Assembly (NCBI GenBank): GCA_947587085.1
Contig: CANPXX010000001.1
Span: 1 to 62,299 of the forward strand
Source of the DNA: an uncultured Clostridia bacterium
GTDB lineage: Bacteria; Bacillota; Clostridia; Christensenellales; Borkfalkiaceae
Direction of reading: 5' to 3'
Length of the DNA stretch: 62,299 bases
In this document: positions 12,726 through 32,292 of the stretch, piece after piece
Layout: each line of letters opens with the position of its first letter
Position numbering within the stretch: position 1 is the first letter of the stretch
Program-made: the position numbers and the translations under genes
Notes under the pieces: generated by a model
What the model saw: the letters and a program-made list of their open reading frames with translations, nothing else
What the model was told of the DNA's origin: nothing
Database searches by the model: none

Positions 12726-13288
12726 AAGGGCTGATTCTCGCGAGCGCCTCGCCGCGGCGGCGGGAACTGCTCGCCTCGCTCGGCGTTCCCTTCGAGGTCG
12801 CCGTCTCCCGCTTCGAGGAGCGGGCGGAGGGGCTAACGCCCGCGCAACAGGCGCTCGCCTTTGCGCGCGGCAAGGCGGCGGAGGTATTTTCCCGCTTTCC
12901 CGATCGCCTGGTGCTCGGCGCGGACACCGTCGTCGCCCTCGAGGGGCGGGCGTTCGGCAAACCCGCCGACGAAGAGGAGGCGAAGCGGTTTTTGCGCCTT
13001 CTCAGCGGCAGGACGCATGAAGTTATCACGGGCATCTGCCTGATGGGGTGCGGCAGTCCGCAGGAGGTGTGCGTCACCACCCGCGTGACCTTCCGCGTGC
13101 TCGGCGAAGAGCTCATCGGGCGGTATGTGGCGAGCGGGCTCCCCCTCGACAAGGCGGGCGCCTATGGGATACAGGACGGATATCCCCTCGCGGAGCGGTG
13201 CGAGGGGAGTTATTCCAACGTCGTCGGGCTTCCGCTCGACGAGACGCGCGCCCTGCTCGAACGGGCGCGAAAAGGAGAGATATGCTGA
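12722..13288 (+). CDS. maf: Maf-like nucleoside triphosphate pyrophosphatase
   Basis: LILASASPRRRELL...GADTVV...GKP...AGAYGIQ. TTG start overlaps the ppx stop. Confidence 0.85.
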   Translation: MKGLILASASPRRRELLASLGVPFEVAVSRFEERAEGLTPAQQALAFARGKAAEVFSRFPDRLVLGADTVVALEGRAFGKPADEEEAKRFLRLLSGRTHEVITGICLMGCGSPQEVCVTTRVTFRVLGEELIGRYVASGLPLDKAGAYGIQDGYPLAERCEGSYSNVVGLPLDETRALLERARKGEIC

Positions 13289-14265
13289 AACTTGCCATCG
13301 ATTTGGGGACTGCGGTCACGAAGATCTACCGCGTCGGGAGCGGCATCGTGCTCGCCGAGGCGACCTGCGTCACCGTGGATAAGACGACGCAGGAGATCCG
13401 CGCCTTCGGCGACGAGGCGAAGCGTCTCCTCGGAAAGACGGCGGACACCGAGGTGTCCTTCCCCGTCTGCGAGGGGGAGATCGTCAACGAGCGGCACGCG
13501 GGCGCCCTTCTCGAATATTTTCTCGCCAAGACGGCGCGCCGACGGTTCGGCGTGGAGGCGCTCTTCTGCGTGCCCTGCGGGTGCAGTACGGAGTCGCGGG
13601 AGCGGTACTACCGCGTGGCGAAGGCGGCGGGCATCTCCCGCGTGGACTTCGCCGAGACGCCCTATCTCGCCGCCCTCGGGCACGACGTCCCGCTCTCCGA
13701 GAGCAACCCCGTGTTCGCGATGGACGTGGGCGCGGGCAAGACGTCCGCCGCGACCTTCTCGCTGGACGGGGTGATCGCGGGGCTCAGCATGAATGTGGGC
13801 GGCAACAATATGGACATCCACATCATCGACCATATCGCGGATCTGTACAACCTCAAGATCGGCATGCTCACGAGCGAGAAGCTGAAAAATTCGGTGGGGA
13901 GCCTCATCGAGAACGACTACCAGAGCACCCTCGTCAACGGGCAGGACATCACGACGGGCAAGCCGCGCACGGTGACCGTCACGTCGGCGGACATTTTGTT
14001 CCCCATCCGCACCTATGTGGACAAAATTCTGGAGTATGCGGAACTCACGCTCCGCAAGTTGCCCGCGGAGGTGTCGGCGGCGATGTGCAAGAACGGCGTC
14101 TTTTTAGCGGGCGGGGTGTGCTCGATCGCGGGATTTGCCGACTACGTCTCCGATAAATTGCAGATGGAGGCGCATCTCGCGAAGGATTCTCTGACCGCCG
14201 TCGTGCTCGGCGGCGGAAGGGTGGTCGGCAACGCCGCGCTGATGAAGCGCATCTGCCTCGGATAG
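13282..14265 (+). CDS. Divergent MreB-like actin-fold protein
   Basis: 327 aa collinear with MreB (DLGTAVTKIY, FCVPCG.S..ER, MDVGAGKTS, LAGGVCSIAGF). The phosphate-binding motifs deviate from canonical DLGTANT and DIGGGTTE. Confidence 0.65.
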   Translation: MLKLAIDLGTAVTKIYRVGSGIVLAEATCVTVDKTTQEIRAFGDEAKRLLGKTADTEVSFPVCEGEIVNERHAGALLEYFLAKTARRRFGVEALFCVPCGCSTESRERYYRVAKAAGISRVDFAETPYLAALGHDVPLSESNPVFAMDVGAGKTSAATFSLDGVIAGLSMNVGGNNMDIHIIDHIADLYNLKIGMLTSEKLKNSVGSLIENDYQSTLVNGQDITTGKPRTVTVTSADILFPIRTYVDKILEYAELTLRKLPAEVSAAMCKNGVFLAGGVCSIAGFADYVSDKLQMEAHLAKDSLTAVVLGGGRVVGNAALMKRICLG

Positions 14266-14310: not shown

Positions 14311-14386
14311 CGCGCGCGCAAACGCGCGCAAAACGGTTAAACAGAACGAATTATTGAAATACATACCCTCGATTTATCAAAATTGC

Positions 14387-14417
14387 TTGACGTGCAGGGG
14401 GGGGGTCATGGTACAAT
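14387..14417 (+). promoter_or_regulatory. Candidate promoter of the 17-kb operon (extended -10, G9 tract in the spacer)
   Basis: TTGACG (14387-14392), a 19-nt spacer containing G9, then TGgTACAAT (-10 at 14412-14417). Confidence 0.5.
14397..14405 (+). repeat. G9 homopolymer tract
   Basis: gcaGGGGGGGGGtcatgg read directly from the sequence. It lies between the putative -35 and -10. Confidence 0.95.
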
Positions 14418-14424
14418 GCTGTAT

Positions 14425-15129
14425 ATGAGTCTCTGGATCATCTGGTTCGTCATGGGCATATGCTTTGTGGCGGTATTCGCGGTCATGGTATTCCCCAAGC
14501 TCATGCTCCGCACCTATGCGGCGACGCTCCCCGTCCGCGACCGCACCGTCGGCAGGGAGACGGACGGGCACGGCGAAGTCCTCGTCTGCGAGCCCTCCGC
14601 CCTGTCGCGGCGGTACATCCGTTCGTACCGCGTGGGGCGGGACAAGGAGGGCATGTATTTCCGCGGCGAGCGGGCGAAGCGCGCCGCCTTTCTCGCGTAC
14701 GATCTCATCGTGTTCGGCGCCTCCAATACCATCTTGCAGATTCTGCACGTCAAAGAGAAGTTCAATTCCGACCCCTTCACCGAGACGGTGCGCCTTCCCA
14801 AGCGCACCGACCTTGTGATTCTGCGGGTGGTGTGCGCGGACGACACGCCCTTCCCGCCCGAGCGCCGTCCCTTCAACGCGCGCTATGCGCTTTGGCTCAC
14901 CCTGCTCTCGCTCAGTCTCGCCTTTACGGTGGACCTCTTTCTTTGGCTGTGCGTCACCTTCGCATGCCGCATCCTTGACCGTTTCACCATGACGGTCTCG
15001 CTGCCCCTCTCTTCGTGGGCGGCGCTTCTCGGGGTGACCGCCCTCGCCGTCGTCGCGGTCTGCTGGGCGGTCTCGCTCGCGCGCTTTTTCCTGTTGCGCG
15101 GAAGGGGGAAGGATGAAAACGGTCGCTAA
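14425..15129 (+). CDS. Hypothetical membrane protein (first gene of the operon)
   Basis: N-terminal TM SLWIIWFVMGICFVAVFAVMVF, a soluble middle region, and C-terminal TM helices. The start is chosen downstream of the putative -10; the ORF track starts at TTG 14383. Confidence 0.55.
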   Translation: MSLWIIWFVMGICFVAVFAVMVFPKLMLRTYAATLPVRDRTVGRETDGHGEVLVCEPSALSRRYIRSYRVGRDKEGMYFRGERAKRAAFLAYDLIVFGASNTILQILHVKEKFNSDPFTETVRLPKRTDLVILRVVCADDTPFPPERRPFNARYALWLTLLSLSLAFTVDLFLWLCVTFACRILDRFTMTVSLPLSSWAALLGVTALAVVAVCWAVSLARFFLLRGRGKDENGR

Positions 15130-15688
15130 ACGGTTACCCTATCCGGGCGGGTTCCCCGTCTATCTCTCGCGGTACGTCCTCTTTCCCGAGGGGTGTCGGG
15201 TCGCCCTGCGCTTTTTCAACGCGAGCGAGACGGAGTTCACGGGCGTGCGCTTTCTGCTCGTGGAGAAGGGGGCGGACGGAAGCGAGATCGCCTCGCGCAC
15301 GGTGGAGCGGCGGGGGCTGTCCGCCGAGCGCGGGCGGGAGTTCTCCCTGCCCGACGAGCCCGTGAGCGAGGGCTGCGCCGAAGTGGAGGCGCGGCTCATC
15401 GCCGCCCTCTCCGACGGCTACGAATATTGCGTGGAGGGGAGCGAAGTCATTCTCCGCTACGGGGAGGAGGCGCCCCCCGCCGAGCGGGAGATTTCCTTCA
15501 CCGAGCCCCCCTCCCATTCCGTCTCCAAGCGGTACAAATGGGTGGTCCTGTTCTCGCTGTGCGCGGTGCTCGGGCTCGCCCTCGTGGCGGCGGGATCTGC
15601 ATGGTTTTTCGGTATTTTCGATTCTCTCCTGCCGCAGCCCGACGGCGCGGCGGAGACGGGAACGGTCACGGAATATGTTGAAGCATAG
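15113..15688 (+). CDS. Hypothetical protein with C-terminal TM anchor
   Basis: 191 aa with a C-terminal TM (WVVLFSLCAVLGLALVAAGSAWFF). It overlaps the upstream gene by 17 nt and the downstream gene by 14 nt. Confidence 0.55.
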   Translation: MKTVAKRLPYPGGFPVYLSRYVLFPEGCRVALRFFNASETEFTGVRFLLVEKGADGSEIASRTVERRGLSAERGREFSLPDEPVSEGCAEVEARLIAALSDGYEYCVEGSEVILRYGEEAPPAEREISFTEPPSHSVSKRYKWVVLFSLCAVLGLALVAAGSAWFFGIFDSLLPQPDGAAETGTVTEYVEA

Positions 15689-18600
15689 CGATATCATCGA
15701 AAAACTCGATTCGCTGCAAAAGGTGGCGCTCGTCGCCTCGGCGTTGGAGGACGAAGCCCTCGAACAGGCGGGGGTGCCCCCCGTCGGGCGGGCGGAGCTT
15801 GGCGCGCTCGCCGCAAAGGAGGGGTGCTCCTACCGCAGTGCGGCGTGCTCGTGGAACGCCGCGCTCATCGAGGAAATGACGCGGGAGCTTGCCGCGGAAG
15901 CGGGCGCGGACGGGGCGCGTCTCTTCGTCACGCCCGATCTGAAAGCGGCGGCGGGACCGTACGCGGAGGGGCTCACCGAGGACGCGGAGCTCAACGGCAT
16001 GTACGGCGCCGCGATGGCGCGCGGCGTGCACGCCGCGGGCGGTGCGGTGGGGCTCGGTCGCCTCTCGCTCGGCGCCGCCGAACTTGCCTGTCTCGACCGC
16101 CGCGAGGATCTCCGCGCCGTCCACGAGCTGGCGGTAAAGCCCTTCCTGCTCGCCGCAAAGGAGGGGTGCGACGCGGTGTTCCTGACGCCGAGCCGCGCGG
16201 GGGAGGGATATCCCGACACCAACCGCGCCCTCTTTTCGGACGTCTTGGCGGGGCGGTTCGGAAACGCCTTCGCCGTCGGAGAGGGGACGGCGCCCACGTC
16301 CGAGGCGGTCTTTCTGTTGCAGGGGAGGGCGACCTTGGGCGGCGCGGCGCTCCCGCTCGAGCGGGCGGCGCGGCGGTACGAACAGCTCGCCGCCTTCCGC
16401 GGGGAGGGAAGCGTCTCGGAGCGGGACGTGGAGGACGCGCTCCGCGAGGGGAGCGCGCTCTCCCGCGAACGGTTGGACGAGGCGGCGGACGAAGTCGCCG
16501 ACTTCGCCATCCGCCTGTCAGAGCTCACGTTGGAGCCGCCCGCGGGCGACGCGGCGAGGCGGGCGGTCGCGGAGGAGAGCATCGTGCTCCTCAAAAACAA
16601 CTCCGTCCTTCCCCTCGCGCAGGGGACGAAGATCGCCGTCGTGGGGGAGGCGTATCCCGACCTTTCCCCCCTTGCCTCGCGGTTCGAGGTAGCGGGGACG
16701 GCGCGCGGCTATGACCGCGCGACCGATCGGAGCGACGCCCTCATCCCCGAGGCGATGCGCGCGGCGAACGGCGCGGACGTCGTGCTCGCCTTTCTCCGTC
16801 CCGACCCGAACGGGCGCTCGCTCGCCCTTCCCGCCAACCGTCTCGCCCTGCTCGGGGCGCTCGAAAAGGCGGGGAAGAGGGTGGTGACGGTCCTTCTCGG
16901 CGACCTCGCGGCGGACATGCGCTTCGACCGCGATGCGGCGGCGTCGCTGTATGCGCCCGAGGGCGGGAAATATGCCGCCGAAGCGCTCGCGCGCGTGCTC
17001 GCGGGAGAGGTCTCCCCCTCGGGCAAGCTGGCGCGCACTCTGTACGACGGCGCGGACGAGCGGGTCCGCGCGCTGAGAGAGGAGCGCGATTCGGGGCTCA
17101 CCCGCGTGGGCGGGTTCACGGGCTATCTCCGCTACGATACGGCGGGGGAGACGGTGCGCTATCCCTTCGGGTACGGGCTCTCCTATACGAAATTCGTCTA
17201 TTCCTCCCTCTCGGTGGAGGGGGATACGGTGTCCTTTACGGTGAGAAACGCGGGCAAGCACGACGGCGCAGAGGTCGCCGAGGTGTATATCGGCGAGCCC
17301 GGCAAGTCGCACGTGGCGCCCTCCAAGCGGTTCAAAGCCGCCGCGAAGGTGTTCCTGCGCGCGGGGGAGAGCAAGAGGGTCTCCCTCACCCTCCCGCCCG
17401 AGCGGTATGCCACTTTCGACCGCCGCACCTTCGCGGAGAACGTGGAGGGGGGAACGTACCGCATCTTTGTGGGCGCCTCCTCGCAGGACATCCGTCTGCG
17501 CGGCAAGCGGACGCTCGCGGGCGTCGAACGGGAACGGGAGAAGGAGACGGCGGCGGACTACTTCCCGGGCGGAGACCGCGGCGACGTCGCCGAAGTGGGG
17601 CGGGAGAGCCGCCTTGCGAAGGAGGACGGGCGCGAACGGGTGCCGCGGCGCCTGCGCATCGCGCGGCGGACGGCGCTTTGCCTCCTCCCCGCCGTCTTGC
17701 TCCTCTTCTTTCTGATCGTCACCATGCTCATCTTTTCCTATGCGCTCGACTATGTCCTCCTCTTCACGGTGGACGAACAGGCGGCGGCGTGGGCGCTCTA
17801 TATCCTCGCGTCGGCGGTCGTCGCCTTCGTGCCGCTCTTCGGCTCGCTCAGCCGCAGGCGGATGGTGCGGATCAAAAAGGTCTGCATGACGGCGTGCCCC
17901 ATCCTCCTCCTTGCCGATCTCTTCCTCGGGCACTTCCTCGGAACGGACGGGACGGGGGCGGTCGAAGCCGTGTTTACGGCGGTCACCTGTCTCGCCGTGG
18001 GGACGGTGCTCGCCCTCCTTCTCGGCTTCGTGCTCGAACGCGAGCTCGTGCGCACGGAGAGCGGGGCGAACCGCTGGGCGCGCTTCTATTTCGAACCCGA
18101 AAAGCAGGAGACGACGACGCCCGATACGCAGTTCGAGGAGGCGTTCCGCGCGGCGGACGAGGCGCGCGCCAAAACAAAGGGCAAGCAGGAGGAGCCTCGC
18201 GCGCCCATCGCCGAGGTCCCCCAATTTTACGATCGGCATCTCACCTTCGAGGTGCTCTTCCGCGACTGCAAGCGGTTCGCGGCGGAGCGCGGCGTGCTCT
18301 TCGAGGACGGGGACCTTCGCGACCTCCTCGCCGCGTTCACGGCTTCCCGCCTCATCATCGTGCCTTCGGGCGGCGCCGTGAAGGGGTGCTCCGCCGTCGC
18401 GGAATATCTCGGCGGCAAGCCCTATGTGGACAATGCCGAACAATACATGCGGTGCGACGACCTCTTCTCGGAGTGGCGGAGCGGGGAGCGGCTCTATCTT
18501 CCCACCGCCCTGAGCGAGGCGTTCGCCGAGGCGGGGAGAAAGAGCGCCGTCCTCCATACGGCGATCATCCGCCATGCCGACGTCAACCGCCTCGCCGAGG

Positions 18601-19172
18601 TGTTCGGTCCCGTCGCGGAGGTGCTTTCCCGCAGGCGGACCGCGATTCCCTCGCAGGAGGGCGATCGGCTCCTGCCGCCCAACCTGCAATTGGTGGTGGA
18701 GCTGGACTCCGACGGGACGGACATCCCCGAGAAGATCGCGGAGGTCGCGGCGGTGCTGTCGCCGCAGTGCAAGGAGGGCGCGCCCGCGCAGAGAAAGACG
18801 GTGGTGCACGCGGTCGGCTTCGAGCGCTTCTCGGCGCTCCGCAACGCCGTGCGCGACGAATTCCCCGTCGGCGAGGCGCTGTGGAAGGACGTGGACCGTC
18901 TCGACGCGCAGTGCCGCGCGGCGCACATCGGCAACCTCGCGTGGGTGAGGCTGGAACTGCACGCCTCCGCCGTCATCGCCTGCGGCGGAAAGGAGCGGGA
19001 GGCGCTGGACGGCGCCCTCGCCGCGGAGCTCGTCCCGTGGCTGAACGCGACGTGGGACGACGAGGCGGGCGGGCTTTTTGAGACGTTGCGGGAGATCTTC
19101 GGGAGAGATTTCGCCCGCGCGGCGCAGGCGGCGAAGAGGGCGGCTACGAAAGAGAAGGGGGCGCGCGGATGA
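15675..19172 (+). CDS. Fusion protein: GH3-like domains + Fn3-like domain + four TM helices + degenerate McrB-like AAA+ domain
   Basis: GH3 hallmarks are IVLLKNNSVLPL..KIAVVGE, SPSGKLARTLY and RYPFGYGLSYTKF. There is no N-terminal signal peptide. Four hydrophobic helices fall at roughly aa 660-790. The C-terminal 330 aa are collinear with the two downstream GTPases but lack the Walker motifs. Confidence 0.8.
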   Translation: MLKHSDIIEKLDSLQKVALVASALEDEALEQAGVPPVGRAELGALAAKEGCSYRSAACSWNAALIEEMTRELAAEAGADGARLFVTPDLKAAAGPYAEGLTEDAELNGMYGAAMARGVHAAGGAVGLGRLSLGAAELACLDRREDLRAVHELAVKPFLLAAKEGCDAVFLTPSRAGEGYPDTNRALFSDVLAGRFGNAFAVGEGTAPTSEAVFLLQGRATLGGAALPLERAARRYEQLAAFRGEGSVSERDVEDALREGSALSRERLDEAADEVADFAIRLSELTLEPPAGDAARRAVAEESIVLLKNNSVLPLAQGTKIAVVGEAYPDLSPLASRFEVAGTARGYDRATDRSDALIPEAMRAANGADVVLAFLRPDPNGRSLALPANRLALLGALEKAGKRVVTVLLGDLAADMRFDRDAAASLYAPEGGKYAAEALARVLAGEVSPSGKLARTLYDGADERVRALREERDSGLTRVGGFTGYLRYDTAGETVRYPFGYGLSYTKFVYSSLSVEGDTVSFTVRNAGKHDGAEVAEVYIGEPGKSHVAPSKRFKAAAKVFLRAGESKRVSLTLPPERYATFDRRTFAENVEGGTYRIFVGASSQDIRLRGKRTLAGVEREREKETAADYFPGGDRGDVAEVGRESRLAKEDGRERVPRRLRIARRTALCLLPAVLLLFFLIVTMLIFSYALDYVLLFTVDEQAAAWALYILASAVVAFVPLFGSLSRRRMVRIKKVCMTACPILLLADLFLGHFLGTDGTGAVEAVFTAVTCLAVGTVLALLLGFVLERELVRTESGANRWARFYFEPEKQETTTPDTQFEEAFRAADEARAKTKGKQEEPRAPIAEVPQFYDRHLTFEVLFRDCKRFAAERGVLFEDGDLRDLLAAFTASRLIIVPSGGAVKGCSAVAEYLGGKPYVDNAEQYMRCDDLFSEWRSGERLYLPTALSEAFAEAGRKSAVLHTAIIRHADVNRLAEVFGPVAEVLSRRRTAIPSQEGDRLLPPNLQLVVELDSDGTDIPEKIAEVAAVLSPQCKEGAPAQRKTVVHAVGFERFSALRNAVRDEFPVGEALWKDVDRLDAQCRAAHIGNLAWVRLELHASAVIACGGKEREALDGALAAELVPWLNATWDDEAGGLFETLREIFGRDFARAAQAAKRAATKEKGARG

Positions 19173-20443
19173 ATCTTCTCATCGATATGCAGACCATCTG
19201 GGATACGCTCACCTCTCCCGTCTTTGTCATCGTCTACATCGTGGCGGTGGCGCTCCTCATGCTCGCCATCGTCATCTCGGTCATGGTCAACGAGCACCGC
19301 TTCACCGCCTTCGGCGACCGCCTCGGCAAGAGCGCGGAGATGGCGGAGCGCGGGGAGGAGCGCAGCGGTTCGCGCTTCGATATGCTGAAAAAATTGGACG
19401 GGGAGAAGAAAACGCGGCAGGAGACCGCGTTCGAGGACATCTCCTTGAAGGAGCTGTGCGAGAGCTTCCGCAGCTTTTCGGCGGGGAAGCTCGGGCTGTA
19501 CTATTCCATCGACGTCATCCGCGAGTTCATCGCGGGGCTCGCCGTTTCGCACATCATCATCCTGCAGGGCATGTCGGGCACGGGCAAGACGTCGCTCGCC
19601 TACGCCTTCGGGGAATTCCTCGGCAATCCCTCCACCGTCATTCCCGTCCAGCCCATGTGGAAGGAGCGGAGCGACCTCCTCGGCTATTACAACGAATTCA
19701 CCAAGCGGTTCAACGAGACCCTTCTTCTGCAAAAGATCTACGAGGCGAACGGGCGCGGGGACATCTTCATCACCATCCTCGACGAGATGAATATCGCCCG
19801 CGTGGAGTACTACTTCGCGGAGTTTTTGTCCCTGCTCGAAATTCCAAACCCCGAGGCGCGCTACCTCGAAGTGGTGTCCGACCGATGGGCGGACGACCCC
19901 GAGGAGCTCAAAAACGGGCGGGTGAAACTGCCCGAGAACATGTGGTTCTTGGGGACGGCGAACAACGACGACAGCACCTTCGCCATCTCGGACAAGGTGT
20001 ACGACCGCGCCATGATTCTGAACATGGACCAGCGGTGCGAGCCCTTCGAGGCGAAGGCGTACCGCTCCGTGCCCGTCGCCGCCGCCCGCTTCGAGCGCCT
20101 TGCGGCGGAGGCGGTCAAAGAGATCGGGGTGTCCTTGGAGACGCTTGACAAGCTCAAAAAGGTGGACGCCTATCTCGCGGAGACCTATCAGATCTCCTTC
20201 GGGAACCGCATCCTGCGGCAGATCGTCACCTATCTGCCCGTCTACGTCGCCTGCGGCGGGGATGAGATCGACGCTCTCGACGACATCCTCGCGAAGAAGG
20301 TGCTCAGAAAACTCGAAACGCAGAACATGACCTACCGTGCCTCCGACATGGAGGCGCTGTGCGAGGTCCTCAACGAACTGTTCGGCGCGGAGCGCATGGC
20401 GCGCTGTCTCAAAACGGTGCGGCGCATCGCGCGGAACGGATAG
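19169..20443 (+). CDS. Membrane-anchored McrB-family AAA+ GTPase (paralogue 1)
   Basis: N-terminal TM VFVIVYIVAVALLMLAIVISVMV, Walker A GMSGTGKTS, Walker B ILDEMNIARVEYYFAEFLSLLE, and McrB-type LGTANNDDSTFAISDKVYDRA (NxxD). The ATG overlaps the upstream stop (ATGA). Confidence 0.8.
   Translation: MNLLIDMQTIWDTLTSPVFVIVYIVAVALLMLAIVISVMVNEHRFTAFGDRLGKSAEMAERGEERSGSRFDMLKKLDGEKKTRQETAFEDISLKELCESFRSFSAGKLGLYYSIDVIREFIAGLAVSHIIILQGMSGTGKTSLAYAFGEFLGNPSTVIPVQPMWKERSDLLGYYNEFTKRFNETLLLQKIYEANGRGDIFITILDEMNIARVEYYFAEFLSLLEIPNPEARYLEVVSDRWADDPEELKNGRVKLPENMWFLGTANNDDSTFAISDKVYDRAMILNMDQRCEPFEAKAYRSVPVAAARFERLAAEAVKEIGVSLETLDKLKKVDAYLAETYQISFGNRILRQIVTYLPVYVACGGDEIDALDDILAKKVLRKLETQNMTYRASDMEALCEVLNELFGAERMARCLKTVRRIARNG
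19550..20016 (+). repeat. About 467-bp near-identical tract shared with 22823-23289
   Basis: By eye, roughly nine-tenths nucleotide identity across the AAA+ core of the two GTPase genes. The flanking gene parts are much more diverged. Confidence 0.8.
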
Positions 20444-20454
20444 GGGAAGGGCGC

Positions 20455-22287
20455 ATGAATCAGACCGATCACATCTATCGCGCCTTCACGGAGCTCAAAA
20501 GGGCGCTGGAAGAGAACCGCTCCGTCCTCTCCTTCTCCCGCGCGCTCGCAGAGGCGGCGGAGCAGGACCGCATCACCGTCACGCACAACCTCTGCTATGT
20601 CGAGGAGGATTGGGTGGCGGCGATCGAGCGCGGACTGCCCTTCATCGCCAAGGCGATCGAGGAGGACAGACAGTTCATCCGTTCGGACGGCGAGGTACAG
20701 CCCATCGAGAAGGTGCGGCACATCTCGCGGGAGTCCGTCCAGCACCTCTCCCGCCACAGCGACTACATCACGCGGGAGCCAAAGGAGGACGACATCATCC
20801 CCGACAAGCTCTACACGGTGGAGCGTCTCAACGACTATGCCGTGTACGAGAACCGCTTCCTCTATCTTCTGCTTTGCAAGATCCGCGACTTCGTCTCCCT
20901 GCGCTACGACGCCATCCTCCGCGCCTTCAAGCTGTACCGCGGCGAGCTCTCCGTCCGCAAGAAGGTCGCCCTGCCGACGCGGCGCATGGAGCTCTCGGTG
21001 TCCATGACGGACGAGCAGGACGACGCGCTCGCCGCCTCCGCCGACCCCGTCTGCCTCAGCTATCTCGGGCGCATGGAGAAGATCCAGAGCAGCGTCGCCT
21101 TCTTCCTGCGCACCCCGCTCATGGTGGAGGTGTCCCGCGTAGACAAGATCAAGTCCAAGATCACCAAGACCAACGTCCTGCGCATGGACAAAAATTTCAA
21201 GGAGGCGGTCTCGCTGTACGAGTTCCTCCTCGCCTATGAGGGGGACGGCTACACGGTGGAGCGGAACGTCACCGCGCTCGATCCCGTCTCGGCGGAGATC
21301 GCGTCGGAGCTGGCGGCTCCCTCCGTTCTCTTGTCCTTCCTCGTGTACGAGCACGGGCTGGGGATGGAGGAGCTTCTCCGCGAGGCGTACGAGCGGGAGG
21401 AGGCGCTTCGCGCCGAGCGCGCCCAAAGCGCCCTCGTGGAGGCGATCAAGGAGCTCAAAAAGCGCGTTGCAGAGACGGGGGAGGACATGGAGCGCTATAT
21501 GCTCCTCCTCGAAGAGCGCAACGCGTGGCTCGAAAAGGAACACCTCCTCTACCTCGAAGCGCAGAAGAAGATCGAAGCGCTCGAGGGCACGGTCGGGGAA
21601 TTGCGCGCCGAGAGAGAACGCCTCATGGGGGAGATCGGCGAGCTCACTGCCGAGAACGAGGCGCTCGGGGCGAAGATAGAGGAAATGGCGGAGACGCACA
21701 GACAGCAGCTCGCGGCGCTCAAAGAGGAGCACGCGCGGGAGACGGCGGCGCTCAAAGAGGAGCAGGAAAAGGAGTTGGAGCGCGCCGAACGCAAGCACCG
21801 CGAGGAGATTGCACGCGTCCGCGCGGAGGGCGAGAAGAAGTTGAAGGAGGAGCGGGAGCGCACCGCCGAGCGGATGCGCGAGACGGAGGAGGCGCGCCGC
21901 GAGACGGACGCCGTGCAAAAGGTGCTCGAAAGCGCCGAGGAGGAGTGCGCCATGCTCCGCGCGCGGTACACGGCGCTTCGGAGCGAACACGGGCTCCGCG
22001 GCGACGCGGATTTCACCACCGAGGAGGGATTCAACGAGCTCGAACGCGAGTTCGAGGCGCTCGGCAGATTGGTCCGCAGGGAATGGACGGACGTCAAGCG
22101 CATGTTGCGCAAGGAATTTTACGGGTCGCTCCGCACCGTCATGCGCGGGAAGAAGGGAGAGAAGAGCGCGGCGTACGAGGCGCTCGTTTCCTCCGCGCAG
22201 GCGCGCCGCGCGCAGGGCGAAGAGCCGCCCATAGGGGAAGGCACAAAGGACAGCGAAGAGGCGTCGGATGAAGACGGAAGAGCATAA
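20455..22287 (+). CDS. McrC/DUF2357-like N-terminal domain fused to a long coiled coil (no nuclease motif seen)
   Basis: The N-terminal part (IRSDGEVQPIEKVRHISRESVQHLSRHSDYI ... YAVYENRFLYLLLCKIRDF ... TNVLRMDKNFKEAVSLYEFLL) resembles the McrB-binding part of McrC/DUF2357. From about aa 300 it is E/K/R/A/L-rich heptad-like sequence for about 270 aa. Confidence 0.6.
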   Translation: MNQTDHIYRAFTELKRALEENRSVLSFSRALAEAAEQDRITVTHNLCYVEEDWVAAIERGLPFIAKAIEEDRQFIRSDGEVQPIEKVRHISRESVQHLSRHSDYITREPKEDDIIPDKLYTVERLNDYAVYENRFLYLLLCKIRDFVSLRYDAILRAFKLYRGELSVRKKVALPTRRMELSVSMTDEQDDALAASADPVCLSYLGRMEKIQSSVAFFLRTPLMVEVSRVDKIKSKITKTNVLRMDKNFKEAVSLYEFLLAYEGDGYTVERNVTALDPVSAEIASELAAPSVLLSFLVYEHGLGMEELLREAYEREEALRAERAQSALVEAIKELKKRVAETGEDMERYMLLLEERNAWLEKEHLLYLEAQKKIEALEGTVGELRAERERLMGEIGELTAENEALGAKIEEMAETHRQQLAALKEEHARETAALKEEQEKELERAERKHREEIARVRAEGEKKLKEERERTAERMRETEEARRETDAVQKVLESAEEECAMLRARYTALRSEHGLRGDADFTTEEGFNELEREFEALGRLVRREWTDVKRMLRKEFYGSLRTVMRGKKGEKSAAYEALVSSAQARRAQGEEPPIGEGTKDSEEASDEDGRA

Positions 22288-23716
22288 ACGGAAAAAGATC
22301 AGGCGGAGGGGGAGACGGCGTTTCGTCCTCTCCGTCATGCTGCTCACCGCGGTCGCGCTCGTCGCGGGGTCCTTGGTCGCGGTCCTTTTCTATCTCATGT
22401 CCAACGGCACGTTGGAGACCATGCTCGCCCTCCTTCGCGACGTGTTCCTCGCGCAGGAGATCAACAGCGCGCTCATCATCTTCTGGGCGCTCGTCATCCC
22501 GTTTCTTCTCGCCGCCCTTCTCATCCTCAACACCGTGCGGCGGCGCAAGTTCAAGTACTACCGCCGTACGTGGGAGGACACCGTCCAGCTCGCGGTGGAG
22601 GCGGAACAGCGCGCGAGCGAGAAGGAGCGCGAAAAGGCGGGGCGCGGGCATCGGTTCAGCGCGCTCTACGATATCCCCGTCCGCACGCCGCCCGAGAGGG
22701 AGAGCGGGATCTCCTCGCTCGCCGAGCTTTGCAGGCGCTTCCGCCTGTACGCCGCCGCCGAACTTCATCTCTACTATACCGAAGCGCAGGTGCGGGAATT
22801 CGTGGCGAGCCTCGCCGTCTCGCGCATCATCATCTTGCAGGGCATGTCGGGCACGGGCAAGACGTCGCTCGCCTATGCCTTCGGGGAATTCCTCGGCAAT
22901 CCCTCCACCATCATCCCCGTCCAGCCCATGTGGAAGGAGCGGAGCGATCTTCTCGGCTACTACAACGAGTTCACCAAGAAGTACAACGAGACGGCGCTCC
23001 TGCGCAAGATGTACGAGGCGAACGGGCAGGACAAGATCTATCTCGCCGTCCTCGACGAGATGAACATCGCCCGCGTGGAGTACTACTTCGCGGAGTTTTT
23101 GTCCCTGCTCGAAATACCCGATCCCGAGCTCCGTTACCTCGAAGTGGTTTCGGATTCGTGGGAGGAGGACCCCGACGGGCTCAAAGACGGGCGCATCAAA
23201 TTGCCCGAAAACATGTGGTTCTTGGGGACGGCGAACAACGACGACAGCACCTTCGCCATCTCGGACAAGGTATACGACCGCGCCATGATCGTCGATCTCG
23301 ACAGCCGCGCCGCGCCCTTCGGAGGGGAGGGGGAACAACAGAAGGTGCCCGTCACCTTCCCCGAGTTCACCCGCCTTGCGGAGAGCGCCCGCCGCGGCTA
23401 CGAGCTCACGCGGCGCAACGAGCGTCGGCTCAAAGCGCTCGACGACTACCTCATCGAAACCTTTCAGATAACCTTCGGAAACCGCATCCTGCGGCAGATC
23501 CGCGCGTATATTTCGGTGTATGTGAGCTGCGGGGGCGAGGAGCTCGAAGCGCTCGACGACATCCTCGCGAAAAAGGTGCTCCGAAAGCTCGCCAATAAAG
23601 ATCTGTCTCTTCTTCGCGGCGAGCTCGAAGAGGCGTCCAAATTTTTCGAAACTCTGTTCGGCGACGGCAAGATGCCGCGGTGCCGCGAAACGCTCCTGCG
23701 CGCGGCGAAGCTCTGA
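22268..23716 (+). CDS. Membrane-anchored McrB-family AAA+ GTPase (paralogue 2)
   Basis: Basic N-terminus (KRKKIRRRGRRR) plus two TM helices, then the same GMSGTGKTS, LDEMNIARVEYYFAEFLSLLE and LGTANNDDSTFAISDKVYDRA motifs. It overlaps the upstream gene by 20 nt. Confidence 0.8.
   Translation: MKTEEHKRKKIRRRGRRRFVLSVMLLTAVALVAGSLVAVLFYLMSNGTLETMLALLRDVFLAQEINSALIIFWALVIPFLLAALLILNTVRRRKFKYYRRTWEDTVQLAVEAEQRASEKEREKAGRGHRFSALYDIPVRTPPERESGISSLAELCRRFRLYAAAELHLYYTEAQVREFVASLAVSRIIILQGMSGTGKTSLAYAFGEFLGNPSTIIPVQPMWKERSDLLGYYNEFTKKYNETALLRKMYEANGQDKIYLAVLDEMNIARVEYYFAEFLSLLEIPDPELRYLEVVSDSWEEDPDGLKDGRIKLPENMWFLGTANNDDSTFAISDKVYDRAMIVDLDSRAAPFGGEGEQQKVPVTFPEFTRLAESARRGYELTRRNERRLKALDDYLIETFQITFGNRILRQIRAYISVYVSCGGEELEALDDILAKKVLRKLANKDLSLLRGELEEASKFFETLFGDGKMPRCRETLLRAAKL
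22823..23289 (+). repeat. Partner copy of the 19550-20016 tract
   Basis: See 19550-20016. Confidence 0.8.
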
Positions 23717-23725
23717 GGAGGGACT

Positions 23726-26125
23726 ATGAGACGTTCGAAACCGCTCTATCTCTTCGGAATGATCATCGTGATGAGCCTCATCTTTCTCGGTGGGGTCTGT
23801 TTTGCCGCGGGCTACGGGAGATTCGGGCTCTTGCGGGGGGAGGAAGTCGAGGATCCCAACACGCTGTGGGAGGACATCGTCGAGAACTTCGATTGGAACG
23901 ACTTCCCGTGGGACGACTTCCCCTTCGAGGAGTACGACGACTTCCCTTGGAGCGAGCTCCCTTGGGACGACATGCCCGCCGACTTCGATTGGAACAAGCT
24001 CCCGTGGGAGACGTTGCCCGACGACTTCCCTTGGGACAATCTTCCCTTCGACGATCCGCCCGCTGACTTCCCGTGGGACGATCTCCCGTGGGATTCCCTC
24101 CCCGAGGACTTCCCCATCGACGACGTGCCGTGGGGCGACATCCCCATCGAGGATATGCCTTGGGAGAACCTGCCCGAAGATTTCCCGTGGGGGGATATTC
24201 CCCTCGGCGACGCGGAGGAGTTCCCGTGGGAGAACATTCCGTGGACCGACCTTCCCGAGGACTTCCCGTGGGAGGACGTCCCTTGGGAGAGCGCACCCGA
24301 CGATTTCCCTTGGAACGACGTGCCTTGGGAGGATGTCCCGATGGAGACGCTTCCCGAGGACTTCCCGTGGGAAAATCTTCCTTGGAATGACTTGCCCGAC
24401 GACTTCCCTTGGAACGATGTGCCGTGGGAGGACGTCCCTATGGAGACGTTGCCCGAGGACTTCCCTTGGGAAAACCTGCCGTGGAACGACTTACCAGAAG
24501 AATTCCCTTGGGAAGATGTCCCGTGGGAGGATGTCCCGATGGAGACGCTCCCCGAGGATTTCCCTTGGGAAAATCTTCCTTGGAACGATTTACCCGACGA
24601 TTTCCCTTGGAACGACGTCCCTTGGGAGGACGTGCCGATGGACACCCTCCCCGAGGACTTCCCTTGGGAAAACCTGCCTTGGAACGATTTACCCGAAGAA
24701 TTCCCGTGGGAAGATGTCCCTTGGGAGGACGTCCCGCTCGATACGCTTCCCGAGGACTTCCCGTGGGAGAATCTTCCTTGGAACGACTTGCCCGAAGAAT
24801 TCCCGTGGGAAGATGTCCCTTGGGAGGACGTCCCGCTCGACACCCTCCCCGAGGATTTCCCGTGGGAAAACCTGCCGTGGAATGACTTGCCCGAAGAATT
24901 CCCTTGGAACGACGTGCCTTGGTCGGATGTCCCGATGGAGACGCTCCCCGAGGATTTCCCGTGGGAGAATCTTCCTTGGAATGAGCTTCCCGACGACTTC
25001 CCTTGGAACGATGTGCCTTGGTCGGACGTCCCGCTCGACACCCTCCCCGAGGATTTCCCGTGGGAAAACCTGCCTTGGAACGATTTACCCGACGACTTCC
25101 CTTGGAACGATGTGCCTTGGTCGGATGTTCCGCTCGATACGCTGCCCGAGGACTTCCCTTGGGAAAAGTTGCCGTGGAACGATCTCCCCGAGGACTTCCC
25201 GTGGGATCAGGTCCCGTGGGCAGACCTGCCGTGGGAGGAGATGCCGCTCGACTTCCCGTGGGATAAAGTTCCTTGGAACGACCTCCCCGACGACTTCCCT
25301 TGGCAGAAACTGCCGTGGCCGCTCTTGGCGGCGGGCGGCTTGTTGCTCGGGCTGGGGCTGCCGTGGGATAAGATCCCGCAGGACGCCATCCCCGAAGGCA
25401 TATTCCCCGAGGGCTTCTCGCCGTGGTGCCAACATGTCTTTACCGAATGGCGGGAGGAGCCCCCGCCCACCTGCGGCGCACCGGGCGTCAGACAAGAGCA
25501 CTGCGTGCTCTGCGGCGAGGTGGTCGGAAGGGAGGACATCCCCGCGACGGGCGCGCACGTCTATGGAGAGGACGGCGTCTGCACGGGGTGCGGACGGAGG
25601 AAGGTGTGCTTTGTGAGCGCCTCCAAAGAGACGGAATACGGCGGCGCGCTTCGGTGCGAAAACGAGGACATCTCGCTCGTGCGGGAGACGGGCTTCGCCG
25701 CGCTCGCGGAGGGGCACTCCTTCGAGGGGATAGATTTTGCCTCGCACAACACCATCGGCGAATGCCCCAACGTCTTTCACGTCCGCATCAAAGACGCGGC
25801 GGGGAACGACGTGACGGATACATACGAAGTGGAGTACCGCTACGGGACTCTCACGCTCACCGCGCGGAGGCTCGTCCTCGTCACGGAGAGCCATGCGTTC
25901 TCCCTCTCCGAATTCACGGGCGAGCCCCTCAAATGGGAGAAGTATTCTTTCGGAGACGGCACGTCGCTCGCCGAGGGCGACCGCATCGTGCTCACCTTCG
26001 AGAGCATCTCGCGCCCGGGCAGAAAGGAAAACATAGCTACTTACCGCATCGAGAATGCGGACGGGGAGGACGTGACGGGGAATTATGCCGTGACCTCCCA
26101 ATGGGGAGAGCTGACGCTCAAATAG
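23726..26125 (+). CDS. DFPW acidic Trp/Pro repeat protein with N-terminal TM anchor, Cys-rich segment and MBG-like C-terminal domains
   Basis: 799 aa with strong RBS GAGGAGGG. The TM is LYLFGMIIVMSLIFLGGVCFAAG. About 480 aa of (F/L/V)PW(E/N/D)D-type units follow. Then comes CGAPGVRQEHCVLCG...CTGCG, and it ends with ...VTGNYAVTSQWGELTLK. Confidence 0.85.
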   Translation: MRRSKPLYLFGMIIVMSLIFLGGVCFAAGYGRFGLLRGEEVEDPNTLWEDIVENFDWNDFPWDDFPFEEYDDFPWSELPWDDMPADFDWNKLPWETLPDDFPWDNLPFDDPPADFPWDDLPWDSLPEDFPIDDVPWGDIPIEDMPWENLPEDFPWGDIPLGDAEEFPWENIPWTDLPEDFPWEDVPWESAPDDFPWNDVPWEDVPMETLPEDFPWENLPWNDLPDDFPWNDVPWEDVPMETLPEDFPWENLPWNDLPEEFPWEDVPWEDVPMETLPEDFPWENLPWNDLPDDFPWNDVPWEDVPMDTLPEDFPWENLPWNDLPEEFPWEDVPWEDVPLDTLPEDFPWENLPWNDLPEEFPWEDVPWEDVPLDTLPEDFPWENLPWNDLPEEFPWNDVPWSDVPMETLPEDFPWENLPWNELPDDFPWNDVPWSDVPLDTLPEDFPWENLPWNDLPDDFPWNDVPWSDVPLDTLPEDFPWEKLPWNDLPEDFPWDQVPWADLPWEEMPLDFPWDKVPWNDLPDDFPWQKLPWPLLAAGGLLLGLGLPWDKIPQDAIPEGIFPEGFSPWCQHVFTEWREEPPPTCGAPGVRQEHCVLCGEVVGREDIPATGAHVYGEDGVCTGCGRRKVCFVSASKETEYGGALRCENEDISLVRETGFAALAEGHSFEGIDFASHNTIGECPNVFHVRIKDAAGNDVTDTYEVEYRYGTLTLTARRLVLVTESHAFSLSEFTGEPLKWEKYSFGDGTSLAEGDRIVLTFESISRPGRKENIATYRIENADGEDVTGNYAVTSQWGELTLK
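24341..25231 (+). repeat. In-frame 99-bp (33-aa) tandem repeat, about 9 units
   Basis: The unit is (M/L)(E/D)TLPEDFPWENLPWNDLP(D/E)(D/E)FPW(N/E)DVPW(E/S)DVP. Consecutive units are highly similar at the DNA level. Confidence 0.9.
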
Positions 26126-26137
26126 GACGGAGGGAAC

Positions 26138-29100
26138 ATGCTCTATCGGTCGTACCAAGAGAGGCTTGCAAAGCTGGCGCGCGCGTTCGAGCGCGTCTGG
26201 CGGTTCCGTCTGCTCTTTTTGGCGGGCTTTGCGCTTCTGCTTGCGGCGGCGGCGACCCTTCTCGGCGTCACGGGGACGGTGTACGGCGAAGAGTTCGCCT
26301 CGGAGGTGGTGTACGGGCAGTCCCTCTCCCCCTCGGCATCGGCGCTCTTTCGCACGGCGTCCTTCGAATACCGTGCGGCGGGCGGCGAATGGACGGAGGA
26401 GGAGCCCCGTCTCGTGGGCGAATACGAGGTCCGCGCCGTCGGAAAGTCGGTGGCGGGCACGCGGTACGCGGGGGAGGCGCATTCCTATCGGATCGTGCCC
26501 CGCGAAACGGAGGTGCGCGCCGCGGCGAGCTCGCTCGTCTATGGGGATGAGCTCGCCTTCTCTGCCTCTCTGTGCTATGGCGATACCCTCACCGTCTCCT
26601 CCTATTCCGCCCGTCCGCTCGGCGGGCGGCTCTTCGTCACGCCCGACGGGGAGAGCATCTCCGCAAGGAGCGAGAGCGGGGAGGACGTCTCTTCCTGCTA
26701 TCTGTTCGTGCCCGTGGAGCGCACGATCGAGGATGTCCCCCGCCCCGTCGTCTTTGAGACGCCCACCCTCACCTTCGGGTACGACGGCAACGTCCACACG
26801 GGCGGCACGGTGGAGGTAGCGGAGGGGAACCTCCTTTCGGGGCACACCGTCGAGGCGGTCATGCCCTCCCTCACTTCGGTAGGGTCTGTCCCCAACAGCG
26901 TGCGCGAACTGCACATCTATGACGAGGCGGGCGAGGAGGTCACCGAGCACTATTCGATCGCCTTTCGGGCGGTGGGAACGCTCACGGTGACGCCGCGCGC
27001 CCTCTCGGTCACGACGCGCTCGGACTCCTTCGTCTATGACGGGACGGCGCATCGGTACGAGGACTTTTCCGTCGCGGAGGGGTCGCTTGCGGAGGGCGAA
27101 ACGCTTCGCCGCCTCTCGGCAGTCTCCCCGACGGAGGCGGGCGAATATCCGAACTACTCCTCCTTCGCCGTCTATGCGGACGGGGAGGACGTCACATCCA
27201 ACTATGCGCTCACCGCCTCGTTCGGGACGGTGACGGTGGAAAAGCGCATCCTTTCGGTCACAACGCGCTCGGACTCCTTCGTCTATGACGGAACGGCGCA
27301 TCGGTATGAGGACGGCGCCGTCTCGGATGGGTCCCTCGCGGAGGGGCAGGAGCTTCGTCGCCTCTCGGCGATCTTCCCGACGGAGGCGGGCGAGTATCGG
27401 AACTATTCCTCCTTCGCCGTCTATGCGGACGGGAAGGAGGTCACATCCAACTATGTCCTCTCCCTCTTCTTCGGGACGGTCACGGTGGAGAGGATACGGC
27501 TTACGGTGGAAGCCATGTCCGACTCCTTCTTATACGACGGGGCATACCATGTCTATGATACGCCATCGAGCGTGACGCGGCATGAAAAGGACGGGACGTA
27601 CCATGTCTACCGTTCGTTTGAGGACGCCGAGGGCATGCTCGCCCGCGGGCAGACGCTCGTCCTCTCGGCGGTCCGCGTCAGGGACAGGGGCGTCCATCCC
27701 AATGCGCCCTCCGCCGCCGTTTATGCGGGGGAGACGGACGTGTCGGCGAACTATGAAATAGAGCTGCGGGCGGGGGAGCTTACGGTCACGCCCCGCCCCG
27801 TCTCCCTCCTCAGCGCTTCGCTAAAAGGCATCGTCTATGACGGCGCGCCGCACGCCGCCGAGGGATACGAGGAGGAAAACCTCGTCGCGGGGCACCGCGT
27901 GGAGGCGACCTACCGTACGTTCACGGAGGCGGGCACGCACACAAATGATTTCGAGAAAGACCCCGTCATCTTGGACGGGGCGGGGAACGACGTCACTTCC
28001 AATTATGAAATTGATTGGAAGTTCGGCACGGTGACGATCGATCGGCGCCCCGTTACGCTCGTCTCGGACAGCGAGCGGTTCGTCTATGACGGTATACCTC
28101 ACGCCGTCAGAAATTATTCTCATATGGGCGAATACGACCTCGTCAAAGGGCATTTCGTCTCTCCCGAATATCCGAGCTATACGGAGGCGGGGGAGCATCC
28201 GAACGAGTTCTCCACGCCGCTCGACGTGTACGACGGCGAGCGCAACGTCTCTTCCGATTATGAAATACAATGGCAGTTCGGCACGGTGACGATCGACCCT
28301 CGCCCCATCGCCTTTGTCACGGGCACGAAGGAGGACTTCGTCTACAACGGGGCGGCGAACGTTTGGCATACGGTCGGGCTCGCCGCGGGCTACACGCTCG
28401 CCGCGGGGGAGAGCTTCGCGGTGACGGTGACGAAGGACGTCTCGGTCACAGGCGTGTGCAAAGGGGTGAGGAACGAGCTCGAATTCGAGTGGAGGGTGTA
28501 CCGCGACGGACGGGAGACCACCTCCAATTACGCGCAGGACGAAACGGAGTACGGCACGCTCGGCGTCCTGCCCCGCCCCGTCGTCCTCACTTCCTCCTCC
28601 GTTACCGTCGTCTATGACGCCGCTGCGCACGCCGCCGCAGGATACGAGGAGGACAACCTCGTCGCGGGGCACCGCGTGGAGGCGGACTATCGTACGTTCA
28701 CGGAGGCGGGCACGCACACCAACGACTTTGAAAAGGAGCCCTCCATCTTGGACGGGGGCGGGAACGACGTCACCGCGAATTATGATATCACATGGGAATA
28801 CGGTAAAGTGGTCATCCAACGGAGGAAGGCGACCGTCGAGACGGGCTCGGGGAATACGATGTACGACGGAACGTCGCACACCTTCGGGGAATTTTCCGTC
28901 TCCGTCGAGGGCGGCGCGCTCGAGGGGCACACCTTCGAGCCCGTCTTTCACGTTTTCAAGGATGTCTGCGAGCAGCCGAATAAGCCCGACGCCATCACTG
29001 TGCGAGGCGGAGAAGCCGACGTCACCGCGAATTACGATATAACTTGGCAATGCGGTACGGTGACGATCGCGCCCCGTCCCGTCACGGTGACCGCGCCGAG

Positions 29101-31468: not shown

Positions 31469-31490
31469 AGGGAATTTTGAAAGTTACCAT

Positions 31491-31519
31491 GCGGCGGGCG
31501 AATTGGTCTCGCCCGCCGC
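31491..31519. terminator. Hairpin between convergent genes (probable operon terminator)
   Basis: Perfect 11-bp GC stem gcggcgggcga/tcgcccgccgc with a 7-nt loop. The U-tract is weak on both strands. Confidence 0.5.
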
Positions 31520-31530
31520 TTATCGGTCGG

Positions 31531-32292
31531 TCAGTATGCCGTCGTGAGGGTGCTCACCGTGAGGGCGAGCAGTTTGTTGTGCCGCCGTGCGGCGGAGAGC
31601 ACGGCGGGGGTCACCCGCTCTCCCGCGAGGGCGATGGGCTCGCCGTTCGCGCCGTACACGCTCCGCTTCACCCTCCGTCCGAGGAGGTTGGTCCTGTCGA
31701 GGAAGCGGATGGCGTTGGGCTCTTTTTGCATGGGCGCATTCTCGGGCATGGGTGTATCCTCGGGCATGGGCGCTTTCTCGGACATGGTAGGCGGCTCGGC
31801 GGGCTCTTGGGCGGGCATGGGCGCCTTTTGCGGCGCGGACACGGTCCGCTTTTTTGTACCCCGCTTCGCGGTGCGGGCGGCGGCCTCGCGGGAGGCGGGG
31901 TCGGGATAGACGACGACGGTCGCCCCCGCCTGCATGAGCGGGACGGGCACGGCGGTCTTGGCGCCGTCCTTGGAGACGATGAGCTCAGGCGCGTCCTGCA
32001 AGAAGAGCTCGCTCGCCGTGCCGAGGTATTCCCCCGTGTGGGCGTAGACGGCGCTCCCGAGGGGATTGGGCACGCCGACGGGGGAGGCGAGGCGGGCGCG
32101 TCCCGCCACGACGGCGTCCGCGAACGAGAGCACGGCGCGCGCGGGGAGGCAGAATTCCTCCTCCTCTTCGTCCGTGCAGAGGAGGCAGGAGAGCTTGCGA
32201 TAGTCGCGGGTGAGGCGGGCGTCCGTCACATAGCCGCACCGCTCGCCCGACGGGGTGATGACGGGGCTTCCGATGATGTTGGAAAGTTGCAT
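31531..32292 (-). CDS. PRC-barrel-like domain protein with Pro/Met-rich linker
   Basis: 254 aa starting at MQLSNIIGSPVITPSGERCGYVTD, with RBS AGAGAGG. The linker reads KAPMPAQEPAEPP..KAPMPEDTPMPENAPM. The C-terminal part is LLGRRVKRSVYGANGEPIALAGERVT. The upstream part of the 431-aa track ORF is implausible low-complexity basic sequence. Confidence 0.6.
   Translation of the reverse strand: MQLSNIIGSPVITPSGERCGYVTDARLTRDYRKLSCLLCTDEEEEEFCLPARAVLSFADAVVAGRARLASPVGVPNPLGSAVYAHTGEYLGTASELFLQDAPELIVSKDGAKTAVPVPLMQAGATVVVYPDPASREAAARTAKRGTKKRTVSAPQKAPMPAQEPAEPPTMSEKAPMPEDTPMPENAPMQKEPNAIRFLDRTNLLGRRVKRSVYGANGEPIALAGERVTPAVLSAARRHNKLLALTVSTLTTAY

Follow-up and report, generated by a model that had tools for sequence, protein, structure and literature searches.

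McrBC is the textbook motor of restriction driven by guanosine triphosphate (GTP), and the NxD branch of its family (CoCoNuT/CoCoPALM) has, to our knowledge, so far been predicted computationally only. Here we describe a locus of that branch on contig CANPXX010000001.1 of an uncultured Clostridia bacterium (Borkfalkiaceae; assembly GCA_947587085.1), of which we analysed positions 1 to 62,299, the whole stretch being called the window below. An eight-gene cluster (14383-31468) encodes two McrB-like GTPases, A and B, on either side of a middle protein that is McrC-like at family level, alongside a degenerate third McrB-like copy, two small membrane proteins and two large surface proteins. The feature is real and well conserved, and it belongs to the McrBC NxD branch. 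We lean towards viewing it as a chromosomal, vertically inherited operon of gut Clostridia in which an NxD-branch McrB/McrC pair has been rebuilt as a nuclease-free membrane machine with an envelope role.

In McrBC, the DUF2357 domain of McrC, the N-terminal domain of McrC in Pfam, contacts the McrB hexamer and stimulates GTP hydrolysis (summarised in PMC11090510). The motif of the NxD branch is "usually followed by a glutamate or a second aspartate" (Bell et al. 2024, PMC11090510, section 7). The same study reports nuclease-less CnuC/McrC homologues (eLife 13:RP94800) and names, without detailed description, the CoCoPALM clade, where the GTPase is fused to an FtsB-like transmembrane (TM) plus coiled-coil segment (PMC11090510). 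A preliminary sequence-only reading of this stretch had taken the coiled-coil relatives of McrBC to retain nucleases and to lack membrane tethers, which that paper contradicts.

Set against E. coli McrBC (6hz4, 6ut6), the AAA+ core aligns over Walker A, Walker B (DExN), the N..D signature and the lid, and an activator-type partner of the DUF2357/McrC lineage is adjacent. Unlike the E. coli enzyme, the cluster is predicted to be membrane-tethered, with no DNA-binding domain or PD-(D/E)xK nuclease, and its middle protein has no detectable similarity to E. coli McrC itself.

Searching annotated plasmids by tblastn places the nearest annotated relatives of the GTPases among CnuB-like proteins encoded on Deinococcus p96k and Polaromonas pPNAP01; identity is 37-40% across 83-91% of the core (E 1e-50 to 1e-58). 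Each is a protein of roughly 800 residues with a long coiled coil at its N-terminus, and its gene lies between that of a UPF1-like SF1 helicase upstream and that of a DUF2357 protein downstream, an arrangement that Bell et al. 2024 (PMC11090510) describe for CoCoNuT systems. Common to these systems and the cluster are N-x-D followed by D or E and a DUF2357 partner with coiled-coil sequence, and in CoCoNuTs too the McrC-type nuclease can be absent. The differences are these: TM helices stand on the window GTPases where CnuB has a coiled coil of roughly 480 residues; coiled coil sits here on the McrC homologue only; HEPN, PD-(D/E)xK and PLD nucleases and the CnuH/UPF1-like helicase were not found in the eight genes or their orthologues; the GTPase gene is duplicated around its partner, with a third dead copy; and the cluster is chromosomal, among housekeeping genes.

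With CoCoPALM the cluster shares an NxD-branch GTPase with a TM-containing N-terminus, coiled coil on the McrC homologue, and a proposed tie to surface structure rather than restriction. This comparison is by description only: the GTPase anchors have TM helices and a continuing helix, and give no FtsB/DivIC Pfam match at E<=0.1. The clade differs in its association with signal-peptidase-family genes of pilus assembly, no peptidase S24/S26 match having been found here in the cluster, its orthologues or the called neighbours; the GTPase linker here is short; and the GH3-like pseudo-GTPase fusion and the giant immunoglobulin (Ig)-repeat/transglutaminase-like proteins are absent from its description. 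As judged by domain searches, the companions that define CoCoNuT and those that define CoCoPALM are both missing from the cluster. We found no description of tandem GTPase paralogues around a partner, of a conserved pseudo-GTPase fused to a pseudo-GH3 domain, of a tie to giant Ig-repeat/transglutaminase-like surface proteins, or of lineage-wide chromosomal fixation. Literature searches returned nothing relevant on membrane-anchored McrBC with transglutaminase, no follow-up CoCoPALM paper, and no paper on PDC-M26, a defence candidate in PADLOC whose PDC-M26A profile both GTPases match (E 1e-48 to 1e-51; individual values 2e-48 and 3e-51). That match covers the GTPase part only of a 724-position profile, and no other PDC-M26 component was detected.

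The two McrB-family GTPases

GTPases A and B are 57% identical over 411 residues (E 5e-162). Both carry the Walker A motif GMSGTGKT and the Walker B motif (I/V)LDEMN, as the sequence-only reading had noted, and the stretches (I/V)LDEMNIARVEYYFAEFLSLLE and LPENMWFLGTANNDDSTFAISDKVYDRA are common to the two, as is NNDD. Across 92 orthologous A and B sequences G[MI]SGTGKT, LDE[ML]N and GT[AV]NNDD are invariant; so, in the GTPase family, are the signature residues N323, D325 and D326. Both proteins pass Pfam AAA_5 (24.5 and 27.6 bits; cut-off 22).

Among solved structures, E. coli McrB (6hz4) is the best match by sequence (E 1.7e-5). The alignment runs gaplessly from the PEN motif through N..D to a conserved downstream D and R, pairing GTANNDDS with GLMNTADRS of E. 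coli McrB. A family profile built from 34 members gave 96% probability in hhalign against E. coli McrB (E 4e-9, 230 columns, lid included) and 2% against E. coli RavA, a MoxR-type protein, with Walker A covered only. Searched against the PDB, the profile reached E<0.01 with McrB chains only, and the best NCBIfam match of the GTPases is McrB, far under that model's cut-off. Judged by these profiles, the flanking proteins are paralogous McrB-family AAA+ proteins. That assignment had been made from the letters alone, with a comparison of hidden Markov models proposed as its check, and the comparison bears it out. The accompanying identification of the signature as NxxD survives in part: the gapless alignment to E. 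coli McrB stands and NNDD is formally NxxD, but it is better read as NxD and then D. Since NNDD fits the NxD[D/E] definition and GTANHDET of the plasmid CnuB-like relatives aligns gaplessly with GTANNDDS, we place the GTPases in the NxD branch, not the classical NxxD group.

By a hydropathy scan, GTPase A has a single TM segment (residues 18-36) and GTPase B has two (23-41 and 69-87) after a basic N-terminus, a one-TM/two-TM pattern kept in 28 of the 34 family members. In the AlphaFold2 (AF2) model (predicted local distance difference test score, pLDDT, 78.6) a helical linker of about 30-60 residues is present; in GTPase B the helix runs on from the second TM segment to about residue 125. No DNA-binding N-domain was found on either protein, whose N-termini consist of TM helices and helical linker; the sequence-only reading had these as membrane anchors, and the hydropathy scan and the family agree. 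Motifs and hydropathy together show two active-looking proteins, each predicted to be anchored in the membrane through one or two TM helices.

The two cores are 64% identical in protein and 80.6% in DNA (about 800 nucleotides, nt) in the window. In related loci L001, L003, L044, L058, L062 and L069, from species further removed, among them the isolate Anaerocaecibacter muris, 1.1-kb core segments form direct repeats of 97.7-100% identity flanking the middle gene (in L069, 8821-9920 and 12586-13685). The copies differ by 16 nt and 1 residue in L069, by 25 nt and 3 residues in L062, and by 17 nt and 5 residues in L044. Such high nucleotide identity with mostly synonymous differences indicates gene conversion combined with purifying selection. 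The pattern suggests that conversion is apparently ongoing in some lineages and has been escaped in the window's clade. It would likewise suggest that either GTPase domain can functionally replace the other, the paralogues differing mainly in their membrane anchors, and points to strong selection on a putative interchangeable ring subunit.

The middle protein and a degenerate third paralogue

Alignment with 39 orthologues confirms the start of the middle gene at 20455. Conservation is strong over the N-terminal 300 residues of its product, with 51 invariant columns that include ERQFI..G.V.PIEKV..S...V.HL..H, DYAVYENRFLY and TPLM...KTNVL.M..NFK. The most conserved segment of the family (residues ~55-185) passes the gathering score of DUF2357 (PF09823) in 21 of 40 orthologues, at 24-29 bits against 23.3; to these the window protein is 35-44% identical overall and 45-63% over the N-terminal domain. 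That conserved segment also gives a weak alignment (E 0.003) with a Deinococcus DUF2357 protein that adjoins a CnuB-like GTPase, with (Y/D)x(V/I)YENR shared.

The AF2 model (pLDDT 76) is a helical bundle with a long β-hairpin at residues 160-189; residues 73-125 are conserved and modelled at low confidence. Everything after residue 305 is helical (305-341, 345-511 and 523-566), in a rod that makes up the poorly conserved C-terminal half. Clear heptads occur only at residues 323-420. In residues 421-490, E, K, R, D and Q make up 60-70% and the a and d positions are only weakly hydrophobic, which resembles a single stable α-helix more than it does a classical coiled coil, and the period-3.5 hydrophobic signal over helix 345-511 is not significant (z = -0.6), so the rod is not a uniform canonical coiled coil. 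The hydropathy scan found no TM segment in this protein.

No nuclease was found in the middle protein with Pfam, PADLOC or NCBIfam, PD-(D/E)xK Pfam matches number 0 in 40 family members, and the model has few strands and no α/β nuclease core. Its family profile returned only coiled-coil noise from PDB sequences. An exhaustive search of 1.84 billion representatives found 1242 clusters matching the middle protein at E<=1e-3; the best 150 of these all have the N-domain at residues 1-320 within a total length of about 350-1330 residues, the same architecture. As far as profiles and model allow, the middle protein is DUF2357-like at family level, lacks a detectable nuclease and has a predicted helical rod of ~260 residues in the nuclease's place. 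The DUF2357/McrC likeness seen earlier thus holds at family level, while the window protein alone gives no match; its supposed ~270 heptad-like residues are a helical rod (residues 305-566) with clear heptads in one part only; and the absence of a nuclease is upheld.

A third McrB-like domain, which the sequence-only reading missed together with the eight-gene context, lies at the C-terminus of the 1165-residue protein encoded upstream of GTPase A. It matches GTPase B by BLASTP (E 5e-12). None of the 21 orthologues examined has Walker A, Walker B or the NxD motif in this domain, which does keep the lid motifs GNR and CGG..ALD. On these motifs, the third paralogue is a conserved, predicted pseudo-GTPase.

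The same protein matches Glyco_hydro_3_C (3e-24) and Fn3-like (2e-14) in Pfam, with no match to PF00933, the GH3 N-domain. Its N-terminal 620 residues align with the GH3 β-glucosidase 7ms2 (E 7.5e-43). At the position of the GH3 nucleophile Asp the window protein has Glu, 46 orthologues show variously E, D, K, S, A or C, and the KH substrate-binding motif is lost. As no signal peptide was found and four TM segments separate the domains, the GH3-like domain and the pseudo-GTPase are both expected to be cytoplasmic. The former appears to be a cytoplasmic, non-catalytic pseudo-glycosidase, possibly a ligand sensor.

A conserved eight-gene cluster

The three open reading frames (ORFs) flagged by the sequence-only reading are confirmed in position, length and strand, yet they form only three of eight co-conserved genes (Table 1). 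Start and stop codons along the whole cluster overlap or lie no more than 13 nt apart; the ATG of GTPase A overlaps the upstream stop codon (ATGA), and the gene for GTPase B overlaps the 3' end of the middle gene by 20 nt.

Table 1 Genes of the cluster, in order, and the repeat formed by the GTPase cores (window positions).
Feature	Coordinates	Strand	Parts	Basis and remarks
Small membrane protein, 248 aa	14383..15129	+	three predicted TM segments	hydropathy scan; first cluster gene; same position in most long related loci (tblastn)
Small membrane protein, 191 aa	15113..15688	+	C-terminal TM segment	hydropathy scan; tblastn; overlaps both adjoining genes
Pseudo-GH3/4-TM/pseudo-GTPase protein, 1165 aa	15675..19172	+	GH3-like and Fn3-like domains 15675-17534; four TM segments 17676-18035; predicted pseudo-GTPase 18210-19145	Pfam, PDB alignment, BLASTP
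GTPase A, 424 aa	19169..20443	+	TM helix 19220-19276; short helical linker; McrB-like AAA+ core 19451-20440; Walker A 19568-19591; Walker B 19775-19792; NNDD 19961-19972	
McrC-like middle protein, 610 aa	20455..22287	+	DUF2357-like N-domain 20455-21357; helical rod 21367-22152 (heptad segment 21421-21714, E/R/K-rich segment 21715-21924, then conserved C-terminal helix)	heptad analysis, AF2 (rod)
GTPase B, 482 aa	22268..23716	+	basic N-terminus; TM helices 22334-22390 and 22472-22528; McrB-like AAA+ core 22721-23713; Walker A 22841-22864; Walker B 23048-23065; NNDD 23234-23245	
Direct repeat of the GTPase cores	19520..20315 vs 22793-23591	+		self-BLASTN
Surface protein, 799 aa	23726..26125	+	N-terminal membrane anchor; acidic DFPW/PW tandem repeats; Cys-rich Ig-like C-terminal part	residues ~660-799 match the same-position gene in other loci (tblastn)
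Giant surface protein, 1776 aa	26138..31468	+	N-terminal membrane anchor; many Ig-like 'YDG...NY...GTLTV' repeats	AgI_II_C2 2.6e-6

This gene order recurs in more than 50 loci, that is, in every sufficiently long related locus, and matching sequences come from 220 species. The carriers are all uncultured gut Clostridia (Candidatus Gallimonas, Borkfalkia, Scatosoma, Coproplasma and metagenome-assembled genomes of Christensenellaceae type), plus the isolate A. muris. Which genes flank the cluster varies from locus to locus; in the window they are Ppx/GppA, MreB, ComEC and HolA, and other loci have RNase Y, RNase H, MutS2, a racemase and others. A tblastn search of 72,556 plasmids and 50,697 phages with the middle-protein N-domain returned no match. 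The window holds no tRNA genes, and at 0.61-0.70 the GC content of the cluster falls inside or close to that found elsewhere in the window (0.58-0.70). Together with the housekeeping flanks, these features do not follow the pattern of a mobile defence island.

Immediately 5' of the cluster comes the MreB/Mbl gene (13285-14265; Pfam E 4e-70). We rejected its adjacency as a functional link; MreB, Ppx and ComEC are near the cluster in no other locus, and the arrangement is probably coincidental. At the other end, a 329-residue ORF (31453-32442) overlaps the gene of the giant surface protein at its 3' end. With neither a Pfam match nor a counterpart in related loci, this ORF falls outside the conserved cluster. 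Further off, a 1239-residue ORF on the minus strand (6503-10222) has no Pfam match at E<=0.01 and is either real or a high-GC artefact.

For the two small membrane proteins Pfam and the PDB gave no credible match over 13 and 9 sequences, respectively (window protein plus orthologues), and a signal-peptidase identity was rejected on that ground. In some distant loci (L001:2007-3779, L003:2365-3903) a membrane protein of 510-590 residues precedes the cluster, with a weak Colicin_V-like match only; the window has no equivalent.

Divergence of the surface proteins is much faster, at 26-44% identity against 50-81% for the GTPases, and they exchange head modules from one species to another: some have a transglutaminase core, and the window has acidic repeats. 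Transglut_core is found in the first surface protein of two sampled orthologous loci (within L001-L003, including L001:13105-14934) and also in giant surface protein orthologues of L001-L003 (1300-1670 residues); Pfam does not find it in the window's own surface proteins. Two tandem arrays lie within the window genes. A 99-nt repeat (24254-25303; 10.6 copies, 83% matches) in the 799-residue protein encodes acidic 33-residue units rich in DFPW, LPW and VPW, where the L001 orthologue has its transglutaminase-like core. In the 1776-residue protein, a 249-nt tandem duplication (27001-27489; 2 copies, 85% matches) corresponds to recently duplicated Ig-like 'YDGTAH...NY...GTVTV' modules.

Proposed function and its alternatives

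Housekeeping neighbours and the lack of plasmid or phage matches to the middle-protein domain lead us to favour an envelope function over defence. By analogy with McrBC, the GTPase domains, probably with the pseudo-subunit, would assemble at the membrane, on its cytoplasmic side, into a hexameric ring like that of McrB. The middle protein would insert its DUF2357 domain into this ring and stimulate GTP hydrolysis, as McrC does for McrB, and the helical rod might replace the nuclease domain as a dimerising or bridging element, or as a spacer. Instead of cutting nucleic acid, the machine would send a conformational or mechanical signal across its TM helices, by which the surface proteins would be assembled, held or regulated. 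The pseudo-GH3 domain may sense a cytoplasmic sugar or a cell-wall precursor.

A more detailed version of this envelope role, which we put forward tentatively and with less conviction, takes the cluster as a domesticated restriction-type pair. A heteromeric ring of the two anchored GTPases and the dead paralogue, fused to its pseudo-glycosidase sensor, would be gated by the nuclease-less McrC homologue and drive, from the inside out and at the cost of GTP, the assembly, anchoring or release of the giant adhesins.

Several observations weigh against the envelope machine. Ring formation and DUF2357 insertion are drawn from analogy, and the tie of the GTPase module to the surface proteins is one of gene order only. 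The window's own middle protein fails to match DUF2357 in Pfam; hhalign against E. coli McrC is null (probability 0.1%), and Foldseek with the full-length model finds nothing in the PDB below E 0.1. For the GTPase model, Foldseek ranks MCM, NorQ, dynein, BrxL and RavA on top and McrB (6ut3) 43rd (E 2.9e-4). At the level of a predicted model, this fold search confirms only a generic AAA+ protein of the superclade; as it does not single out McrB, the McrB assignment is carried by sequence profiles, motifs and the DUF2357 neighbour. Finally, the closest annotated GTPase relatives belong to plasmid operons of CoCoNuT type, beside a DUF2357 protein and a UPF1-like helicase, and both GTPases match a PADLOC defence candidate.

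The last two points count towards the main rival, a membrane-acting defence system. Under this explanation, which we judge unlikely though worth retaining, the cluster would belong to the CoCoNuT/CoCoPALM lineage and act against phage or in another conflict: infection would be sensed by the surface proteins or by the pseudo-GH3 domain, and the GTPase/DUF2357 complex would trigger abortive infection not by a nuclease but through membrane proteins, for example by membrane disruption. The faster divergence of the surface proteins and the swapping of their head modules are also in its favour. Set against it are the failure to find any nuclease, HEPN, helicase or known toxin domain in the cluster, neighbours that are housekeeping rather than defence genes, an order and content constant across the long loci, a middle-protein domain missing from the plasmid and phage collections, and a PDC-M26A match confined to the GTPase core.

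The two remaining explanations are poorly supported. MoxR-DUF58-TgpA operons of Pseudomonas offer a parallel for a MoxR/NorQ-like AAA+ chaperone module that would mature or insert transglutaminase-like surface proteins, the McrB likeness being general AAA_5 similarity. NorQ hexamers and RavA are indeed among the top Foldseek matches, and Transglut_core proteins are encoded downstream in orthologous loci. We nevertheless hold this to be improbable: the profile comparisons single out McrB over RavA, the NxD[D] and DExN motifs are present, the partner is DUF2357-like with no VWA or DUF58 domain found in the cluster, and the window's own surface proteins have no transglutaminase core. A conventional Type IV McrBC restriction enzyme, its nuclease in the middle protein or elsewhere in the cluster and too diverged to detect, would share the McrB-like GTPase and DUF2357 gene pair and could draw on the structurally unexplained residues 73-125, but is very hard to credit given GTPases that are tethered and devoid of a DNA-binding N-domain, the missing PD-(D/E)xK matches, a strand-poor model and a C-terminal half that is a poorly conserved rod.

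What stands out is a GTPase/DUF2357 pair with no detectable nuclease or DNA-binding domain, predicted to be membrane-bound and stably kept alongside surface proteins across 220 or more species of poorly studied, abundant gut Clostridia. The cultured carrier Anaerocaecibacter muris CLA-AA-M11 makes the proposed function testable. If the envelope reading is true, an immune-type AAA+ switch would have been repurposed for envelope biology, and the locus would offer a tractable ring of active subunits, gene-converted copies and pseudo-subunits. It would then be, as far as we could find, the first non-defence, membrane-transducing use of the McrBC architecture.

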